This document shows positions 4,164-58,936 of a stretch of DNA of 64,000 nucleotides, one piece after another. The DNA is from Anaerolineales bacterium (lineage in GTDB: Bacteria; Chloroflexota; Anaerolineae; Anaerolineales; UBA11579). Positions within the stretch are counted from its first letter, which is position 1. The number at the start of each line of letters is the position of its first letter. Below the pieces are notes generated by a model, which did not search any database, had not been told where the DNA came from, and saw only the letters and a program-made list of their open reading frames with translations. The position numbers were made by a program, and so were the translations under genes. The stretch covers positions 20,927 to 84,926 of the forward strand of contig DATDRZ010000085.1 in assembly GCA_035291465.1 (NCBI GenBank), written 5' to 3'.

Positions 4164-4333
4164 CAATTACCTTGTACCTCATTGCGAATACGATGACCCT
4201 GTCAAGGCCAAAGGCTGGACAGGGCGATCGTTCTGAATGAAGGCCGTATTGGAGCGCATTGGAGAAAGAATCACGTTAATCAATGGACTCGAGTAGTACG
4301 GTGGAGTCTGTTTAACTTAGTAGTAAATTGCCA

Positions 4334-4359
4334 CGCCTCGCTCGCAGTGACGGAAAGGG
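4334..4359. repeat. Repeat family R1-related core
   Basis: CGCCTCGCTCGCAGTGACGGAAAGGG shares the CCTCGC...G(A/C)CGGAAAG core. Confidence 0.35.
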
Positions 4360-4416
4360 CCAAACTCCCTTCCCCTTTCTAAAGGGAAAGGTTGGGGATG
4401 GGATTGAATGATTGAA

Positions 4417-5550
4417 TCAACCAATCACACGTAACTCGCGAGGGGAGCTGCTTAGCGTGCGGGCGCCATCTTCGGTGATGACAACGTTGTCCTCGATACG
4501 CACGCCACCACGGCCAACTAGATAGATGCCGGGCTCTACGGTGAAGGTCATTCCTGGCTCCAGCGGCATGCTATTACCTGCGCGCATATAGGGTTCCTCG
4601 TGCGGCTCAAGGCCCAATCCGTGGCCCGTGCGATGGGTAAAGTATTCGCCGTACCCCGAATCTTCAATGACGTCGCGGGCGCCTTCGTCAACGGCGGAGC
4701 AAGGGGCGCCGGGTTTGGCAGCATCGCGTCCTGCCTGGTTGGCGAGTTTCACAATTTCGTAGATGCGCTTAAGCTCCTCGTCGATTTCGCCGACGGCGAA
4801 GGTGCGTGTGAGATCTGAGAAGTAGCCGCCCACATTGGCGCCCCAATCGAATAGCAGCAGATCGCCTTTTTGCACTTTGCGATCGCTGACTGTGGCATGC
4901 GGGTTGGCGCTGTTGGCGCCGGCGGCAATGATGGGCAGGAAAGGCAGCTCAGGGTCGCAGCCGCGGGTGTAGAGATTCTGGATCAGTATGCCGGAGATCT
5001 CGCGCTCGGTCATGCCGATCTTGACCTTCGTGACCGTGGCTTCCAGAGCAGCTTCGGCGATTTCGACAGCCTTCTGCATGGCGTCGATCTCGGCCTCGTC
5101 CTTGTGCATACGAAGCTGAGCGATGAGCGGCTCGGCCTGTTCGAACTTCGCGCCCGGTAATGCGCCTTCTAAGTAGCGCAGCTCCATCACCCGCATGCGC
5201 AATCCTTCCACGCCGATGCGCTTTGGCGGTGCAATCAGTTCAGCCGCCGCTCGGCTGAAGCTTTCCTGCCAGAGAGCAGGATCCTCTCCGTAAGTAACAA
5301 CGGTCAAATCTTTGATGCCTTCTGTTTTGCCTTTTTCGAATTCAGGTAACACAATGATCGGAAATTGATTTGGCATCAGGAACACAACAACCGGGCGCTC
5401 CATGAGATGGAAATGCAGGTCGGTGAAATAGGTCTGCATTGGCCCTGCATTCAAGGCAACGGCGTCCAAGCCCTGTTGTGGGAGCAAGGAGTTGAGTTTC
5501 TCTCGCCGGCTGGCAAAAACGCTCGCGTCAGTTGTCATTGTTCTCTCCAA
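4417..5550 (-). CDS. M24 family Xaa-Pro peptidase
   Basis: 377 aa with a creatinase-like N-domain plus pita-bread C-domain. Metal-ligand contexts are present (FDWGANVGGYFSD, HRTGHGLGLEPHE, VEPGIY, RIED). Confidence 0.8.
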   Translation of the reverse strand: MERTMTTDASVFASRREKLNSLLPQQGLDAVALNAGPMQTYFTDLHFHLMERPVVVFLMPNQFPIIVLPEFEKGKTEGIKDLTVVTYGEDPALWQESFSRAAAELIAPPKRIGVEGLRMRVMELRYLEGALPGAKFEQAEPLIAQLRMHKDEAEIDAMQKAVEIAEAALEATVTKVKIGMTEREISGILIQNLYTRGCDPELPFLPIIAAGANSANPHATVSDRKVQKGDLLLFDWGANVGGYFSDLTRTFAVGEIDEELKRIYEIVKLANQAGRDAAKPGAPCSAVDEGARDVIEDSGYGEYFTHRTGHGLGLEPHEEPYMRAGNSMPLEPGMTFTVEPGIYLVGRGGVRIEDNVVITEDGARTLSSSPRELRVIG

Positions 5551-20144: not shown

Positions 20145-21080
20145 TTACCGAGATTGGTGGTGTTTTTCTTTCTCCTCTTCCGGTTTGGGCAATTCGTCCA
20201 CTGCCGGGAGCGAAGCTCGATGTCTTGCAAAATCCTTCCACGGGTCTCCTTTGCGCCCCAAGCGCTTGAAGATATTCTCCATCGTATAGCCTTGCGGGTC
20301 AAGTTTGGATTCGGATAGCTCGTCCCAATCCAGGGGCGCGGCTACCGGGGCGCCGGGCTTAGGACGCAGCGCATAAGGCGCCACGCTGGTCTGGGCATAC
20401 TCGTTGCGCAAATAATCCACAAAGACCCGCCCACGCCGTTTCTCCTTGCGCACTTTGGTGGTGAACTTCGGATCCTCGGCCTCGAGGTTTTGCGCTGCCG
20501 CCTTGGTGAACTCCTTCACGATGTTGTAATCGTGCTCAGGCTTGATGGGGCAGGCCACGTGCAGTCCCCGTGACCCAGTGGTCATCACGAAACAAGTCAG
20601 GCCCAGATATTCCAGCAACTTGCGCAGGTCGTGGGCCCCTTCCTTGACTACCGCAAAATCGTCGTCAGAGGGATCCAGGTCGAAGACGATCTTGTCCGGC
20701 TTACGGATGGCCTCCGTTGTACTCAGCCAGACGTGAGGCGTGATCACGGCCAGGTTGGCTAAATAAACGAGAGTTACCGCGTTGTTGCACACGATCTCAT
20801 TTTGCTTTGAACCATCTTCGAGAGTGATGCGCACGGTTTCAATGAAATCCGGGAAATAGACAGCGGCTTCCTTTTGATAAAAGCCCTCCTCATCGATGCC
20901 ATCGGGAAAACGTTGTAGCGCCAGCGGTCTGCCCTTCATGTGCGGCAGCATGGTCTCGGCAATGCGTTGGTAATAATCCACGACTTCGCTTTTGGTAATC
21001 CCGTCGTCGGGAAATAACTCCTTGTCGGCGTTGGTGATTTCAATTTTGTGTCCGCCAATTTTCTTGAATGTCTTGCTCAC
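20145..21080 (-). CDS. Stand-alone LigD-type primase-polymerase domain protein (NHEJ PolDom)
   Basis: 311 aa with a GTG start. It has segments typical of the LigD Pol domain (LQRFPDGI, IVFDLDP, TTGSRGLHV, VFVDYLRN, APYALRP). Confidence 0.75.
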   Translation of the reverse strand: MSKTFKKIGGHKIEITNADKELFPDDGITKSEVVDYYQRIAETMLPHMKGRPLALQRFPDGIDEEGFYQKEAAVYFPDFIETVRITLEDGSKQNEIVCNNAVTLVYLANLAVITPHVWLSTTEAIRKPDKIVFDLDPSDDDFAVVKEGAHDLRKLLEYLGLTCFVMTTGSRGLHVACPIKPEHDYNIVKEFTKAAAQNLEAEDPKFTTKVRKEKRRGRVFVDYLRNEYAQTSVAPYALRPKPGAPVAAPLDWDELSESKLDPQGYTMENIFKRLGRKGDPWKDFARHRASLPAVDELPKPEEEKEKHHQSR

Positions 21081-25000: not shown

Positions 25001-25558
25001 GTGTATTCCAACACCGGCGGTCAGGCCTCCAAGGCCACCCCGCGAGCCTCCACGGCGCGCTTTGCTGTCAACGGCAAAGAAACTGCCAAGAAGAACCTGG
25101 GTCTGTTGGCGATCAGTTATGGCAGCGTGTATGTGGCCAGCATCGCCATGGGCGCCAGCGACGCGCAGACCATGAAGGCCATCACCGAAGCTGAGGCCTA
25201 CAATGGGCCTGCGCTGGTGATCGCTTACGCGCACTGCGTAGAACACGGCATCGAGATGACCAAGGGCTTGCAGGAGCAGAACCTGGCCGTGGAATCCGGC
25301 ATGTGGCCGCTCTACCGATACAACCCGGATTTGGCCGCTCAGGGCAAACCCGCGCTGATCCTGGATTCCAAAGAGCCTAGCATCTCGGTGAAGGATTACA
25401 TCTACAACGAGAACCGCTACCGCCGCCTGGTGGCCGCCGACGAAGAGCGCGCCGAGCAACTGCTCGCCAAGCTGGAAAAGGATGTCCAGCGCCAGCGAGC
25501 CACCTTCAAGCGTTTGGCGCAGGGCGAGGAATTGCAGAAGGCGGTTGTTAACAACTAA
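22001..25558 (+). CDS. nifJ: Pyruvate:ferredoxin (flavodoxin) oxidoreductase, single-polypeptide type
   Basis: 1185 aa. Two ferredoxin-type motifs (CIQCGKCVFVCP, CTGCTLCVDACP) and a TPP-binding region (GGDGWAYDIGYGGLDH). Confidence 0.9.
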   Translation: MSKQIAIVDGNEAVASVAYRTNEVIAIYPITPASAMGEYADLWAAEGKPNVWGSVPSVIEMQSEGGAAGAVHGALQAGSLATTFTASQGLLLMIPNMYKIAGELTPAVFHIAARTIAAHALSIFGDHSDVMAARQTGWALLASNSVQEAHDLALIAEVATLEARIPFLHFFDGFRTSHEIGKIKLITDEIIRKLLPEDKIHEHRQRALTPERPVVRGTAQNPDHFFQGREAANPYYAACPEIVQKAMDAFAAETGRRYNLFDYYGAPGAERAIVLMGSGAGAVEEAVDALQTRGEKVGVLKVRLYRPFSPEHFLAALPPTVRSLAVLDRCKEPGAVGEPLYLDVQSAFREAPLGTWAPKVIGGRFGLSSKEFTPAMAAAVFAELGKAEPKLHFSVGIKDDVSHQSLDVDPEFSADDATAHQAIFFGLGSDGTVSANKASIKIIGEETDKYVQGYFSYDSKKAGTVTESHLRFGGNPIRSTYLVERANFVACHQFGFLEKFDVLEKIDKGGTFLLNSPFNAKEVWENLPRLTQEHIIDKKLKFYVIDANKLADEIGLGGHINTSLQTCFFHITGVIPEELALGKIREAIHKSYGKKGEKVVAQNIAAVDQALARLEKVEIPQGADSQRELRGAVSEQAPEFVRSTLGAIIERRGNSLPVSAFPVDGTFPVGTTQWEKRALADEIPVWDPQDCIQCGKCVFVCPHAVIREKVYAAADLVGAPVSFQSVEAHWKEFPDQIYTLQVSPEDCTGCTLCVDACPVTDKVTGKKPIEMQPIGAHRETEKVNWEYFLTLPEVDRSVIKLNTVKNSQLLQPLFEFSGACSGCGETPYLKLISQLYGERAIIANATGCSSIYGANLPTTPWAKNREGRGPAWANSLFEDNAEFGLGIRISLDKQEAMARELLAKLSVAIGPELVQRLLTADQSSEAGISEQRLRVAELKGRLSGVDNPEARNLMQLADALVKKVVWIVGGDGWAYDIGYGGLDHVLASGRKVNILVMDTEVYSNTGGQASKATPRASTARFAVNGKETAKKNLGLLAISYGSVYVASIAMGASDAQTMKAITEAEAYNGPALVIAYAHCVEHGIEMTKGLQEQNLAVESGMWPLYRYNPDLAAQGKPALILDSKEPSISVKDYIYNENRYRRLVAADEERAEQLLAKLEKDVQRQRATFKRLAQGEELQKAVVNN

Positions 25559-25566
25559 ACGGATAA

Positions 25567-25628
25567 CCACGGAGACACGGAAACACGGAGCTTTTTAATG
25601 TTTTCTCCGTGTCTCAGCGCCTCCGTGG
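25567..25628. repeat. Repeat-derived stem-loop between convergent nifJ and polB; second copy of the 24-nt motif seen at 918-941
   Basis: CCACGGAGACACGGAAACACGGAG (25567-25590) differs by 1 nt from 918-941. Downstream CTCCGTGTCTC (25605-25615) and CTCCGTGG (25621-25628) are complementary to parts of it. Confidence 0.6.
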
Positions 25629-25649
25629 TTTGTTTTTGTATTTAGGCGG

Positions 25650-27956
25650 TTAGACAGAACGGGGTTTGCGGGAAAATGAGTGTCGAGCAATCTGCTCCAA
25701 CAGGGGCCAGCGAATCGGCGTTCCGCGCACATAATCCTCAGGCGCCCAGTAGACGCCTTGATTCTTAAGCCAAGCCGATAGCACATCTTTTGGCACCCCG
25801 AGCGGTGACAAGACCTCGTCGGCGGCCCTCACCAGCTGCTCGCAGTACCAGTCCGTGTCCAGGTCTACTCGTTGGTCTGCGCGCACCAGATGCCAGGAAA
25901 GTGAATGTGGTGCATTGGTCACACGCAGGAATTCCACACTTTGCCCGGCGCGGACTATCTTGCCCTCCGCCTCCAGTTGACGGGCAGCCGCGCTGGCAGG
26001 GGAGATGACTCTGAAATCTTCGATATCTCGGCTCAAAGTTTGGGAAATTACTAACTTCTCAAGGGGTACTTCTTGGTTGGCGATTTTTGAGTAGTGCGAC
26101 TTAAAGAAATTAACTAAGCGGGGAATGAGCGTACGCAGTCCATCCAGATCGGCCTTCGCAGCCATCACCCGAATCGCCTTCATTTGCACGTCGGCAATAT
26201 ACAAAGGGGTGTCACCGCGGCGAGCCATGATGCCCCGGCACTTCAGCTCTCCGTTTTCAAAGACGCCGAAATAGCAATTGGGCACGGGCACGGCCTCGTT
26301 TTGCTTCGAGGGCAAGAACGCGATCCAATGTAACACGCCCTCAAGATCTACCTTGAGGCCAGTGCGATTTTTGATCTCGGCCAACAAATCGTCTAATTGC
26401 GCTTGACTGTGCCCGTCTACGCGTGCAAACAGGCTGTCTACATAGACATGCAATACCTCGAAGCCGGCGTCCTCGGCGGCCTCTTTCGCGTGCAAGATCA
26501 CATCGCGGCTGACGGCGTTGATCGCCTCGTGAGCTTCGATGCTGCCAATGCGGTTGCCGCTGAAACCCTGGTAGCCGTAAGAAACCCAGCCAAGACCCTT
26601 GAGGAATTCGTACGCAGTCTGAAGGTATTCCTTGTCATAGCCCAGGGTGTTGCCAGCTTCTAACAGGTCTTTGGCCGCAGCGCGTTTGGCCAGGATCGGC
26701 CTGAGCACCTCCGCCACAATGCCGGGTCGATCCTGATCAATCGGCGCACCAATGCCGGGCGCTATTCGGTTATTCGCTCCCACCGCGCCCACGGTTTCCG
26801 CCGAGATGTTCCAGCCGGTCATGATGTGCGGGTACATGGAAAAAAAGTCGATCTCTGCGACGTTGGCATGCAGGCCGGTGATCGGCTTGAAGATGACGCC
26901 GCCATTATCGGCGGCGATCATTTGGGTGGCGCTCTTGAAGCGTTCACGCTGTTCTTTGCGGATCGGGATCAGAATGCCTTTTTCCAGTGAGGCGGTTACC
27001 TGCATGCCTACGAAAGCGCCGCCCGCGCTGCGCCGGGCAGCATTCTGGATGGGCAGATTGCTTAAGCGCGCAGTTTCGAAGGTGCCGCCGGACCCCCAAT
27101 CCTTGAAGGCCATGGAGTTCTGCGGGTCGAGGTGCAGGCGCCCGAAAAGCAGGGTTTGCTGGTCACGATGCACCAGCCTGCCATAGCTTTCGAATTGGTT
27201 GGCTTCCACTCGCAGGGGCGGGCGGGTCTTGTCGCGGTTGGGATTGAACGGTATATGCGCTGCCTTCGCAGTGGAGAACAAATAAGGAAACATCCACGCA
27301 TCTCCATAACGAGTGCGAATGATGTCGGGATCGTACAGTTCAACCCACTCCGCGAAACGCCTCACCAGGCCAGGCGGGTCTTTCGTGCCAAGAGTTTCTG
27401 TTTTATTCCCAAAGCTGACGCGAAGGGAGGGAGGCAGAGACTTGTAGGGTGAGCCGGTGGGTTCCACTTCCAACGTACGCAGCTCAGGCAGACGGGGTTT
27501 TAAGCTCCACTTGTTGTCCTGGGTCGCAATTTTCGTAATTCGATTTTGTCCGTCGGCCCACAGTTTCGAAAAGGCAAGCGGAAATGTTTTGGTGGCGACG
27601 AAGTAGTGAACCGGCAAGGCCAGATCGGCATTGTAGTAATCCAAGCCGGGGAATAAACCGTGCAGCTTGCGAAATATTGATCGTTGCACTGCGCCGTTGG
27701 GAACCGTGATGGCCACCACGTCAATGTCGCCGTGAAAGAGGTGCTTGCGCTTCACTGTTTGGAACTGGAGCCGGCCCTTTTTTAAATATCCGCAAAGATC
27801 AGTCAGCTCATGTTGATCGCCAGCTATGTAGAAGGCAATCGACAGGTCCTGCACGAAACGCAAGCGGCGCCCATCTTCGCAAACCAACCAGACAACCGCG
27901 CCCTTACCCTTGTCGGCGTAAACGTCCAGTATCCAGCCTGAATATTCAGTGGCCAT
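25650..27956 (-). CDS. Family-B DNA polymerase (archaeal-type architecture) with degenerate 3'-5' exonuclease motifs
   Basis: 768 aa from ATG 27956; the track start at 28187 overlaps the upstream gene in another frame. N-terminal WILDVYADKG...FYIAG. Motif A DFFSMYPH. Motif B region KGLGWVSYGYQG. Motif C reads YVDS instead of DTDS. KxY region CRGIMARRGD. ExoI reads LEVE instead of FDIE. ExoII reads YGDAWMFPYL instead of NGxxFDxPYL. No YxxxD ExoIII segment was found. Confidence 0.85.
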   Translation of the reverse strand: MATEYSGWILDVYADKGKGAVVWLVCEDGRRLRFVQDLSIAFYIAGDQHELTDLCGYLKKGRLQFQTVKRKHLFHGDIDVVAITVPNGAVQRSIFRKLHGLFPGLDYYNADLALPVHYFVATKTFPLAFSKLWADGQNRITKIATQDNKWSLKPRLPELRTLEVEPTGSPYKSLPPSLRVSFGNKTETLGTKDPPGLVRRFAEWVELYDPDIIRTRYGDAWMFPYLFSTAKAAHIPFNPNRDKTRPPLRVEANQFESYGRLVHRDQQTLLFGRLHLDPQNSMAFKDWGSGGTFETARLSNLPIQNAARRSAGGAFVGMQVTASLEKGILIPIRKEQRERFKSATQMIAADNGGVIFKPITGLHANVAEIDFFSMYPHIMTGWNISAETVGAVGANNRIAPGIGAPIDQDRPGIVAEVLRPILAKRAAAKDLLEAGNTLGYDKEYLQTAYEFLKGLGWVSYGYQGFSGNRIGSIEAHEAINAVSRDVILHAKEAAEDAGFEVLHVYVDSLFARVDGHSQAQLDDLLAEIKNRTGLKVDLEGVLHWIAFLPSKQNEAVPVPNCYFGVFENGELKCRGIMARRGDTPLYIADVQMKAIRVMAAKADLDGLRTLIPRLVNFFKSHYSKIANQEVPLEKLVISQTLSRDIEDFRVISPASAAARQLEAEGKIVRAGQSVEFLRVTNAPHSLSWHLVRADQRVDLDTDWYCEQLVRAADEVLSPLGVPKDVLSAWLKNQGVYWAPEDYVRGTPIRWPLLEQIARHSFSRKPRSV

Positions 27957-28302
27957 TTGGGGCGCCCCTAGGCAGGAAGATCTCCGTGCGCAGTTTGCCG
28001 AGTTCTGTGGAAAACTCTTTGCGACTTTTTTCCAGTTCACGCCCGAAGTCCATGCGCTGGTTTTCGATCTCGGCTTCAAGCCGCAATACTTGCTTGTGTT
28101 TTTCCAGTAACAGGGCAAGCAAGAACCCGATGCCAGGCAGCAGGTTAGCAGCATAACCGGCGGCGGGCAGATGTTGGTTGGCTTCATCGAGTAAAGCGTC
28201 TAGCGCCAACTGGTCGGACTTACGCAAGGCCCGTTTGAACGGCTGTACATAGGCCAGGAAGCGCTGATAGTTCTGGGTGACGGTAGAAAGCGTATGGCCC
28301 AT
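27946..28302 (-). CDS. Small helical protein of unknown family (middle gene of the SOS-box cassette)
   Basis: 118 aa. Its start lies 2 nt after the upstream stop and its end overlaps the polB ATG by 11 nt. It has a central hydrophobic stretch (LLPGIGFLLALLL) and a charged heptad-like C-terminal half (LRLEAEIENQRMDFGRELEKSRKEF). Confidence 0.65.
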   Translation of the reverse strand: MGHTLSTVTQNYQRFLAYVQPFKRALRKSDQLALDALLDEANQHLPAAGYAANLLPGIGFLLALLLEKHKQVLRLEAEIENQRMDFGRELEKSRKEFSTELGKLRTEIFLPRGAPNGH

Positions 28303-28304
28303 TT

Positions 28305-28895
28305 CTAGATTCCCGGCAAGGCCGGTTGGATAACCAGGTTGATCTGGTCGAAGGGTTGGAAGTAAAAGCGCTCGTCGGAGTTCTGCTCAACCAGTTTAAG
28401 CAGATCTGGTCGTGCGGGATCGGGATTAGCGCTGATGAGAACCGGTGCGGCCTCGCTAAGCTGATGAATGCGCTTGATGCACTTTTGCAGTAGCAGGGTG
28501 ACTTCCTGGGGCGTCAGGTCCTCTTCGTAGAAGGATTCCAGCATATCGGTGATCACGATGGGCAGGGGGCTGGGCTCCAGCGAGGCGAGCACATCCTTCA
28601 TCTGGTAGCAGGTTTCGGCCCGCGAGACCAGGATACGGTCCATGATCTCGTAGACCCTGCCGACCTGTTCGCCCATTATTAGCGGCAGGTGTTCGAAGGA
28701 GATGCGGTTGCCGCCGACGATTACCTGAACCGCTCCGCGTATCCCCAGGCGGTCGACGAACTCCTGCATGGCGGCGTGCAAAACGTCGGCATCCCCCTGG
28801 AACAGGTACACCGAGCCCTGGCTCAGGGGCACCATCTGGCGCACGCTGGAAAGCGCAAATGGGCCAGGAATTTGGGTGACCGCCGAGCTGCTCAT
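28305..28895 (-). CDS. RecA/RadA/Rad51-fold protein lacking a Walker A P-loop (ImuA-like in logic)
   Basis: 196 aa. RILVSRAETCYQ resembles the Rad51/RadA ARAxNxxHQ segment. A hydrophobic strand plus Asp (LPIVITDMLESFY) sits at the Walker B position. There is no GxxxxGK[ST] anywhere; the equivalent position reads VYLFQGDADVLH. Confidence 0.6.
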   Translation of the reverse strand: MSSSAVTQIPGPFALSSVRQMVPLSQGSVYLFQGDADVLHAAMQEFVDRLGIRGAVQVIVGGNRISFEHLPLIMGEQVGRVYEIMDRILVSRAETCYQMKDVLASLEPSPLPIVITDMLESFYEEDLTPQEVTLLLQKCIKRIHQLSEAAPVLISANPDPARPDLLKLVEQNSDERFYFQPFDQINLVIQPALPGI

Positions 28896-28910
28896 CTCTA
28901 GGGGTTAGAG

Positions 28911-28939
28911 ATGATAATAGAACTTATGTTCTATGTCAA
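28911..28939 (-). promoter_or_regulatory. Sigma-A-type promoter with embedded LexA (Cheo-type) SOS box
   Basis: On the minus strand: TTGACA (28939-28934), a 17-nt spacer, TATCAT (28916-28911). The perfect palindrome GAACATAAGTTC (plus-strand GAACTTATGTTC, 28920-28931) lies within the spacer. The ATG at 28895 is 15 nt downstream of the -10. Confidence 0.7.
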
Positions 28940-29188
28940 GATGGGACTGCTTGACTGGTCCCTGATGCTCAAAGGAGGAGGTCAAGTTGTTGTTCCTGAT
29001 AACAGGGGTGGGGTCGTACATCTTTGACAAACCTCGGACGCTTAGAAGAGCGCTTTTTTCAGCCCGAAGTTGAAGCTGAAAGAGAAACCTTTTAAGATTC
29101 TTTTGTAGTTGAGTCATGATCGCCTCTTTTATCTCCCTCTAGCTAAACCCACATTTGGCAATATAGCAAAAAAAAAAGTTTAGAAGGA

Positions 29189-30313
29189 TCATCCCCCTAG
29201 CACTTCCCTCAACCGATCTAAGAATCCGCTTTCGCGCGGGTGGGCTTCGGTGCCCATAGTGGCGGCGAGCTGCTCGAAGAGCTTGCGCTGTTCGGCGTTC
29301 AGCTTGTTGGGGATGGATACGCTGACCATCACCAACTGGTCGCCACGGCCGGAGCCGCGCAGGTGCGGCACACCCTTGTTGCGCATGCGCAGCACCTTTC
29401 CGGGCTGAACGCCCGTGGGGATGCTGAGCTCGGCGGGCCCGTCGACCGTGGGCACCTCAACGTCCGCGCCCAATGTGGCCTGGGCCACGTTGATGTCCAG
29501 GTCCAGCAAGATGTCGTCATCGCGGCGATGAAAGTATTTGTGCGGGCGCACGTTGAGCGCGATGTATAGATCGCCTTGAGGGCCGCCGTTTAGACCCGGC
29601 TGCCCTTCCCCATTCAGACGCACTTGGGTTCCGGAGTCCACGCCTGCGGGGACAGCCACTTTCTTCTTAACGGTTTTGCGTTCCAAGCCACGACCATTAC
29701 AAACTTTGCAAGGTGAACCGACGATGGTGCCAGTGCCGCGGCAGTTGGGACAGGTGGTCACCTGCACCATGGAGCCGAAGATGGTCTGGCGCGAAGCGCG
29801 CACTTCGCCGCTGCCGCCGCAGGTGGGGCAGGTCGATTTGCTGGTGCCGGGCTCGGCGCCCTCACCATCGCAGCGGGTGCAGACCTCGTCGCGAGTGAAT
29901 TCGACTTCCTTCTCCGCGCCGAAGACGGCTTCTTCGAAATCGAGGGTCAAGTTGTATTGCAGATCTGCGCCACGGCGAGGTGCGTTGCGCTGCTGGCGCC
30001 CGGAGCGGCGACCGAATCCGAAGCCAAAGAGCTCCTCGAAGATGTCGCCCAGATCCACGTTGGTGAAATCGGGCATGCCGCCGAAGCCGTCCAGGCCGGC
30101 ATGGCCGTAGCGATCGAAAGCAGCGCGCTTTTGCGGGTCGGCCAAGACGGCGTAAGCTTCGTTAAGCTCCTTGAACTTTTCTTCAGCATCGTGGGACTTA
30201 TTGACGTCGGGGTGATATTGACGCGCCAAACGCCGGAAAGATGACTTGATCTCTTCCGGCGAGGCGTCGCGATGGACACCCAAAATATCGTAGTAGTCGC
30301 GTTTAGTGGCCAA
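29189..30313 (-). CDS. dnaJ: Molecular chaperone DnaJ
   Basis: 374 aa with J-domain and HPD (YHPDVN), a G/F-rich linker and four CxxCxG repeats. Confidence 0.95.
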
Positions 30314-58263: not shown

Positions 58264-58536
58264 AAATTAATAGGCTCCCTCGTTATCTGGTCATGGTCAT
58301 TTCACCCTGCGCTTTAAACCACGCCTAGTAATCGCAAAAGAAGAACAATTAACGCGATCGTGGGCGAGATCAGCAACAGGATGATCAAAAGGATTAGGAA
58401 CTCTGCACTCATGAAATAAAGAACGAAAAAATTTGTTTTTTGTAACGCTCTTTCCAACCTTGCGAAGGCTGGACTTGTGAACAAGATTGATTCCAAGTCG
58501 AACCTTCGCAAGGCTTGTCATAAAAAGCCGCATTAT

Positions 58537-58573
58537 ATATTCCTTGACAGGAATATTCCTTTTGGGGTATATT
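58537..58573 (+). promoter_or_regulatory. ArsR-family gene promoter with overlapping palindromic operator; probably a leaderless transcript
   Basis: TTGACA (58544-58549), 18 nt, TATATT (58568-58573); the ATG at 58580 is 7 nt downstream of the -10. Perfect 12-bp palindrome AGGAATATTCCT (58549-58560), nested with ATATTCCT-TGAC-AGGAATAT (58537-58556). Confidence 0.6.
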
Positions 58574-58579
58574 AGAGGC

Positions 58580-58936
58580 ATGGACCCCGCAACTTTGGCC
58601 GCCCTGGCCGAACCCAATCGCCTGAAGATCGTTGAGTTCTTGCGCGACAAGCCGCGACCCGTCGGCGAAATCGCGGCCCGATTGCGGATTCGGCAGCCGC
58701 AGGTTTCCAAACATCTGCGCGTGCTGGCGGAGGCCGGAATCGTGGATATGCGACCGGCGGCCCAGCAGCGCCTGTACTATTTACAGCCCAAGCCGTTTCA
58801 GGAACTGGATAGGTGGCTGGATACATTCCGCCCGACCTGGGAAGCAAGGCTCGATACGCTTGAGGCCTTTTTGCAGGAGATGCAAGGCAAAGCCAAGAAG
58901 CCTGGAAGTCCCGAAGTCAGGAGATCAAAGACATAG
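58580..58936 (+). CDS. ArsR/SmtB family transcriptional regulator
   Basis: The start at ATG 58580 is preferred. LAEPNRLKIVEFL...VGEIAARLRIRQPQVSKHLRVLAEAGIV wHTH. Confidence 0.85.
   Translation: MDPATLAALAEPNRLKIVEFLRDKPRPVGEIAARLRIRQPQVSKHLRVLAEAGIVDMRPAAQQRLYYLQPKPFQELDRWLDTFRPTWEARLDTLEAFLQEMQGKAKKPGSPEVRRSKT

Follow-up and report, generated by a model that had tools for sequence, protein, structure and literature searches.

A conserved trio of genes encoding the B-family DNA polymerase PolB2 (Dpo2), the arCOG07300 protein and an inactivated RadA has been described, with bacterial copies, some of which share an operon with lexA (Makarova et al., 2014; PMC4104785). The two partners of the polymerase have since been renamed PPB2 and iRadA, and a heteropentameric 1:1:3 mutasome of the three proteins has been modelled (Timinskas et al., 2025; PMC11791011). 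The same study described an MGRT arm of PPB2, a DK loop, and clamp motifs on iRadA, the C-terminal clamp-binding motif being present in many but not all members. Only the order iRadA-PPB2-PolB2 was found in bacteria, and the supplement lists Chloroflexota/Anaerolineae operons of the type "1a (iRadA-PPB2-PolB2)" with YVD and iRadA clamp motifs (PMC11791011). Cultured carriers in this dataset include Ornatilinea apprima, Longilinea arvoryzae, Pelolinea submarina and Bellilinea. Genes for lexA are enriched beside bacterial polB2 (PMC4104785, PMC11791011), and in a 2026 survey bacterial PolB2 figures as an established group. Here we describe a three-gene cassette in a 64,000-nucleotide stretch of DNA from an Anaerolineales bacterium (contig DATDRZ010000085.1, positions 20,927 to 84,926), hereafter the window. 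The cassette is a known kind of system, not a new one. It is very probably the Anaerolineae (Chloroflexota) version of the PolB2 mutasome operon, iRadA-PPB2-PolB2, placed behind a LexA-type operator and serving as a damage-inducible, error-prone extender.

Three other systems invite comparison. The imuA-imuB-dnaE2 cassette is likewise a LexA-controlled set of several genes, in which an inactive RecA-fold protein accompanies an error-prone polymerase of a replicative family. Its polymerase is the C-family DnaE2, accompanied by the inactive Y-family protein ImuB, whereas the window encodes the B-family PolB2, and it has no equivalent of PPB2. Neither ImuB nor a C-family DnaE2 is found in the cassette of the window, which holds only the RecA-fold, helical and B-family polymerase proteins, and the resemblance is one of analogy, not of cassette homology. 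Escherichia coli Pol V (UmuD'2C-RecA) is also a damage-induced mutasome, in which a polymerase is joined by a RecA-family protein and by a small oligomeric subunit that has an N-terminal arm. However, its polymerase belongs to the Y family, it uses the active RecA of the cell and not a dedicated inactive paralogue, and UmuD' is a dimer unrelated to PPB2. E. coli Pol II shares with PolB2 the B family, LexA regulation and binding to the beta clamp, but it is a single subunit with active proofreading, an intact DxD and no partner genes.

The three closely spaced genes of the window (Table 1) belong to the same three families as the published operon and follow the same bacterial order. Genes 1 and 2 are separated by 2 nt. 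The automatic list of open reading frames (ORFs) gives gene 3 a length of 845 aa; we take its true start to be the ATG at 27956, because the N-termini of homologues (MAEY.GWLLD...) and the gene calls on identical public contigs point to it, and this start produces an 11-nt overlap with gene 2. The product is a B-family polymerase (PF00136, E 8e-23). Its top NCBIfam matches are models of short archaeal "type B" polymerases, NF004416 with 306.9 bits (cut-off 516) and NF004418 with 274.4 bits (cut-off 692), and it reaches only 39.8 bits with NF004421, the model of the E. coli-type Pol II. It is 38% identical to a published Anaerolineaceae PolB2 (E 4e-89) and 29% identical to a published Methanoregula PolB2 (E 6e-30). 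The latter alignment runs with few gaps over residues 158-429, from ExoI onwards, and spans most of the decayed exonuclease region, in favour of membership in PolB2. Compared with Pyrococcus and Thermococcus polymerases, motif A (DFFSMYP) is intact and motif B is recognizable as K...YG. Motif C reads HVYVDS where Pfu has DTD, so that the first Asp is replaced, as in the YVD of the published operons. The exonuclease domain is dead and decayed, as in published PolB2: ExoII has changed from N..D to Y..M, and in the family profile ExoI has changed from DxE to ExT and the ExoIII segment has no counterpart, with profile positions 243-292 failing to align with canonical PolBs, which are about 45 residues longer there. 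The DK loop is present as PFNPNRDK (residues 236-243), with N240 and R241 invariant and NRDK as the family consensus.

The C-terminus of PolB2 also carries a conserved patch of the form [LIM]-P-[LM]-[LFW] or similar to QLALF (...RWPLLEQIA... in the window; also in the related loci L005-L008, L017, L029, L036, L037 and L040), in which P751 is invariant. This patch could be a second, weak clamp-binding motif. Clamp motifs in both proteins are rare in the published survey (PMC11791011).

Gene 1 has 54 homologues, all annotated as hypothetical and all from Chloroflexi or Anaerolineales. A sequence search of the PDB gave chance matches only, and the local Pfam and NCBIfam copies held nothing useful; across genes 1 and 2 they returned only a spurious Proteasome match and weak GrpE matches. 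An AlphaFold2 model built on the homologue alignment (predicted local distance difference test score 85.5, predicted template modelling score 0.83) retrieved RAD51, DMC1 and RadA as the top Foldseek hits, with E 1e-7 to 1e-6, probability 1.00 and a template modelling score of about 0.6. The protein has no GK[ST] motif and no Lys before residue 100, and LFQGDADVLH stands at the position of the P-loop. It begins at the RecA/RadA core and, with its 196 aa, lacks the N-terminal RadA domain. Absence of the P-loop and of the N-terminal domain, together with a clamp-type tail, is what has been described for iRadA. The window protein ends in QPALPGI and its clade in Q..LPG[ILMF], with Q190 nearly invariant; in most other loci the C-termini are Q..LF or ..RLF, as published.

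Gene 2 encodes a 118-aa protein whose structure model contains helices at residues 3-25, 28-44 and 51-109. Residues M1, G2, H3, T4, L5 and T7 are invariant in 25 sequences (MGHTL.T), which gives it a conserved N-terminal arm like that of PPB2. An identical protein on public contigs carries the Pfam family DUF8156 (PF26485), which is absent from the local Pfam copy; the homologues are annotated as hypothetical, there was no PDB match, and the sequence search of the PDB gave chance matches only. A profile search recovered 712 protein clusters, nearly all of which align from residue 1. Some of the matching proteins are 237-321 aa long and have PPB2 as their C-terminal portion, an architecture consistent with fusions to iRadA. 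Ten of the 712 clusters were looked up for named archaeal PPB2 proteins, and these ten gave no informative names or taxa; the archaeal link of the cassette therefore rests on the similarity of PolB2 and on the literature, and not on the PPB2 profile. In two related loci (L032, 2289-3122; L063, 4175-5008) a single stop-to-stop ORF contains matches to the iRadA profile and to the PPB2 profile, which fits the published iRadA-PPB2 fusions. Going by these ORFs, the two proteins may be physically associated.

An earlier reading of the window, made from its sequence only, had described three packed minus-strand ORFs with these spacings, a RecA fold without Walker A in gene 1, a helical protein in gene 2, and in gene 3 a PolB with recognizable motifs A, B and C, mutated ExoI and ExoII and no discernible ExoIII. 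The ORF coordinates with the start of gene 3, the Foldseek matches with the missing GK[ST], the three modelled helices and the polymerase alignment agree with it on each point. It had also suggested looking in relatives for the three-gene order and for an upstream GAAC-N4-GTTC box, and both are widely conserved. A scan of one genome per species gave at least 585 confirmed stretches, the best 80 of which were analysed. These 80 are metagenome-assembled genomes of Chloroflexota/Anaerolineae, except one labelled Deltaproteobacteria. In about 73 of the 80 the order is that of the window, with the polymerase behind genes 1 and 2, and the exceptions are mostly truncated loci. In three loci (L047, L054 and L055) PolB2 stands alone right behind the box (box at about 4942-4955, PolB2 from about 5000) with no detectable upstream iRadA or PPB2; the gene upstream in L054 is a large divergent TPR/transglycosylase-like ORF. 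The Anaerolineales chromosome OZ252150.1 (L012) appears to carry a second iRadA-PPB2 pair, inverted and some 3.4 kb upstream of the operon; the copies lie at 14-814 on the minus strand and 4195-4995 on the plus strand, with identical E-values.

GAAC-N4-GTTC is the established LexA motif in Gram-positive bacteria and in Dehalococcoides. The promoter of the cassette, TTGACA-17-TATCAT, matches the consensus at 11 of 12 positions and is the only sigma-70-like match within 25400-29400. It had been proposed earlier with a GAAC-N4-GTTC palindrome in its spacer, and this holds, although the palindrome really extends over 16 nt (TAGAACTTATGTTCTA) and agrees with the consensus found 5' of orthologous operons. 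The core of the box occurs once in the 64 kb, where about one copy is expected by chance. Significance drawn from the 8-base core within the window was therefore rejected as no better than chance, and the case for the box rests on the extended consensus and on the orthologous loci. The extended palindrome precedes the operon in 62 of 77 loci, compared with 19 of 411 control windows, and the 820 kb of related loci contain 63 exact GAAC-N4-GTTC cores, 53 of them no more than 1 kb upstream of the operon. In orthologues the box sits between TTGACA and TATAAT-like hexamers or immediately after the -10 hexamer, and both are classic positions for a repressor. The gene 1 homologue P0052 has an N-terminal extension ("...LEHTFYYH...") that is the translated box and -10 hexamer, which shows that conservation of the operator persists at a protein identity of 44%. 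The leader of the operon mRNA would be very short, about 9 nt or less, with similar spacing in several related loci. Public assemblies annotate a 70-aa gene at 28905-29117 on the minus strand, but this ORF covers the promoter and operator, has no family match, and was treated as spurious.

Whether the box is a LexA box was examined with a metagenome scan for exact ATAGAAC-N4-GTTCTAT, which gave 120 matches (L085-L204). A LexA homologue begins just downstream in the correct orientation in 12 of the 120, where about 0.2 would be expected by chance, and these proteins are named "repressor LexA" in public sources. The same motif stands 5' of IMS/Y-family imuB-like genes (9 matches), PHP-domain dnaE2-like genes (5 matches), genes for a radical-SAM SPL-like protein (2 loci) and PolB2 operons. 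In these metagenomes, this set of downstream genes is the signature of an SOS regulon. The motif also precedes genes for an FtsK/SpoIIIE-family ATPase (3 loci), an uncharacterized membrane protein of about 280 aa (5 loci) and a protein of about 200 aa (4 loci; in L118 divergent from lexA). A conserved LexA-type operator within the core promoter was not found described in the published work consulted here, which reports only lexA genes nearby (PMC4104785, PMC11791011), and it adds incrementally to a system already known.

The only other conserved neighbour of the operon is a gene of about 135 aa for a GerE/LuxR-type helix-turn-helix protein (PF00196, E ~1e-14), which lies 5' of gene 1 in 39 of the 80 loci (L010, L015, L018, L020, L025-L027, L029, L032, L033, L037, L043, L049-L051, L053, L056, L060, L062, L066, L069, L071, L077 and L078, among others). 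Timinskas et al. (2025; PMC11791011) list GerE among the enriched neighbours in their supplementary tables but do not take it up in the main text. Where present, the gene stands between the box and iRadA as the first gene after the box, and autoregulation is conceivable; with no lexA near the related loci, the palindrome might be the operator of a regulator other than LexA, such as this protein. The window has no GerE gene, though, and its clade and one other clade retain the box without one. In metagenomes the very same motif is found ahead of lexA and of imuB-like and dnaE2-like genes, and its core is the LexA motif of Gram-positives and Dehalococcoides. We regard a non-LexA operator as improbable.

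It has also been proposed that PolB2 does not polymerize at all: between 2008 and 2014 it was regarded as catalytically inactive (PMC4104785). By such an account the complex would act at stalled forks or origins as a structural or regulatory component, and the loss of the first Asp of motif C and the change of motif B from KxxxNSxYG to KxxxWVxYG fit it. Yet D370, Y505, V506 and D507 are invariant in 24 relatives, and so is K453 of motif B. The relatives are 37-83% identical, and since the Asp residues that bind metal in motifs A and C persist, like the Lys of motif B, down to 37% identity, the catalytic core is under selection. Dpo2 of Sulfolobus, whose motif C reads IID, is active as a translesion extender, and targeted mutagenesis depends on it. 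An inactive polymerase is thus a decidedly improbable alternative.

The sequence-only reading had gone further and taken the cassette for a genuinely new SOS mutasome on a PolB scaffold, an analogue of ImuA-ImuB-DnaE2 with no described equivalent. That genes 1 and 2 match no local Pfam or NCBIfam model and no PDB sequence, and that their homologues are all hypothetical, lends it an appearance of novelty, but the claim is refuted and keeps hardly any probability: the same trio with the same order and motif states was published in 2014 and 2025, Anaerolineae operons with YVD included, and the window polymerase is measurably similar to published bacterial and archaeal PolB2. The functional part of that reading, a LexA-box-controlled translesion module made of an inactive RecA-family protein, a helical protein and an exonuclease-dead PolB, is supported. 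Finally, many bacterial PolBs derive from viruses or casposons (PMC4104785), but the chance that the cassette is part of a mobile element or prophage with its own PolB is very small, and both the surroundings and the base composition led to rejection of that origin: the cassette is flanked by housekeeping genes (hrcA-grpE-dnaK-dnaJ upstream and, beyond PolB2, a convergent pyruvate:ferredoxin oxidoreductase gene), the GC content matches that of the neighbouring genes, no tRNA or integrase was seen adjoining the cassette, and the operon occurs in varied contexts in several hundred stretches of species-level genomes.

Several points weigh against identifying the cassette as a LexA-controlled PolB2 mutasome. 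The tail of the window iRadA (QPALPGI; Q-x-x-L-P-G-[ILMF] in its clade) departs from the canonical QLxLF, and the PPB2 arm has His at position 3 (MGHT) where the published arm has Arg (MGRT). The NCBIfam scores of the polymerase lie under the curated equivalog cut-offs, and the names of those models do not contain "PolB2". An E. coli LexA query detected no lexA in the window and none in 84 related loci (the one match, at 58481-58933, has E 0.013). Unlike the published system, the cassette has a LexA-type operator in the core promoter and no adjacent lexA. The named LexA proteins beside the metagenome motif belong to other phyla (Syntrophales, Kiritimatiellia, Paceibacterota). Moreover, no bacterial PolB2 has been studied experimentally, and the five-subunit architecture and the clamp tethering come from AlphaFold models only.

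With these points weighed, the identification as a PolB2 mutasome operon behind a LexA-type operator still stands as very probable, and a mechanism can be outlined. In undamaged cells LexA would bind TAGAAC-N4-GTTCTA in the spacer between the -35 and -10 hexamers and block RNA polymerase. On DNA damage, RecA-stimulated self-cleavage of LexA would derepress the operon. Its products would assemble as one PolB2, one iRadA and a PPB2 trimer, after the published AlphaFold models of homologues, with PolB2 predicted to bind iRadA through a loop that resembles the Rad51 oligomerization loop and lies ahead of the conserved DK motif. The C-terminal motif of iRadA would tether the complex to the beta clamp. 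If PolB2, which lacks proofreading, behaves like Dpo2 of Sulfolobus, it would then extend primer ends that are mismatched or lie opposite a lesion, and the outcome would be damage tolerance at the cost of mutations. More tentatively, the Anaerolineae PolB2 mutasome may be a core member of the LexA regulon by virtue of its promoter operator, with a further layer of control by a GerE/LuxR regulator added in most lineages. That layer would have been lost in the lineage of the window, which lacks the GerE gene that heads about half of the related operons.

The coordinates of the cassette and of its control elements are collected in Table 1. On the far side of PolB2, the long hairpin probably ends the operon as a terminator that works in both directions. 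On the promoter side, the sequence-only reading had seen no obvious terminator between dnaJ and the cassette and had thought heat-shock read-through conceivable. A terminator-like hairpin with a run of ten T residues does follow dnaJ; as judged from its sequence, it should insulate the cassette from the hrcA-grpE-dnaK-dnaJ operon, and read-through in the window is therefore unlikely. The gene dnaJ adjoins the cassette in the closest relatives only, and several relatives have clear terminators just ahead of the -35 hexamer, but in L003 about 10 nt separate the dnaJ stop codon from that hexamer, with no terminator, and read-through is thus conceivable there. Another DNA-repair gene, for a stand-alone LigD primase-polymerase domain (20145-21080, minus strand; PF21686, E 3e-91), lies about 4.5 kb past the cassette, and there is no GAAC-N4-GTTC box near it.

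Table 1. The cassette, its promoter elements and flanking hairpins, in window positions (position 1 is the first nucleotide of the window; a point in the strand column means that no strand is given)
Feature	Position	Strand	Description
25-bp hairpin	25565..25630	.	Near-perfect, unusually long; -44.2 kcal/mol, z-score -9.5; between the convergent PolB2 and pyruvate:ferredoxin oxidoreductase (PFOR) genes
PolB2, gene 3	25650..27956	-	768-aa B-family polymerase; decayed exonuclease domain; motif C YVD; NRDK loop at residues 240-243
PPB2, gene 2 (DUF8156, PF26485)	27946..28302	-	118-aa three-helix protein; invariant N-terminal MGHTL arm; long C-terminal helix
iRadA, gene 1	28305..28895	-	196-aa RecA/RadA core without Walker A and without N-terminal RadA domain; C-terminal QPALPGI, a candidate beta-clamp-binding motif
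-10 hexamer TATCAT	28911..28916	-	About 15 nt from the ATG of gene 1
LexA-type operator TAGAACTTATGTTCTA	28918..28933	.	Perfect 16-mer palindrome that fills the -35/-10 spacer; core GAAC-N4-GTTC at 28920-28931
-35 hexamer TTGACA	28934..28939	-	Abuts the box directly, as in many orthologous loci
Terminator-like hairpin with T10	29167..29199	-	Directly after the dnaJ stop codon

Through the conserved LexA-type operator in the core promoter, SOS control could be tested directly and at low cost. The operator also singles out the operon as a likely origin of mutations induced by damage in Anaerolineae, which are common in sediments, soils and wastewater. If the PolB2 mutasome is indeed a core member of the LexA regulon, PolB2 could be the chief mutagenic polymerase of the SOS response in this large and mostly uncultured group, and the operon would be a tractable first bacterial system for the predicted PolB2-iRadA-PPB2-clamp machine.

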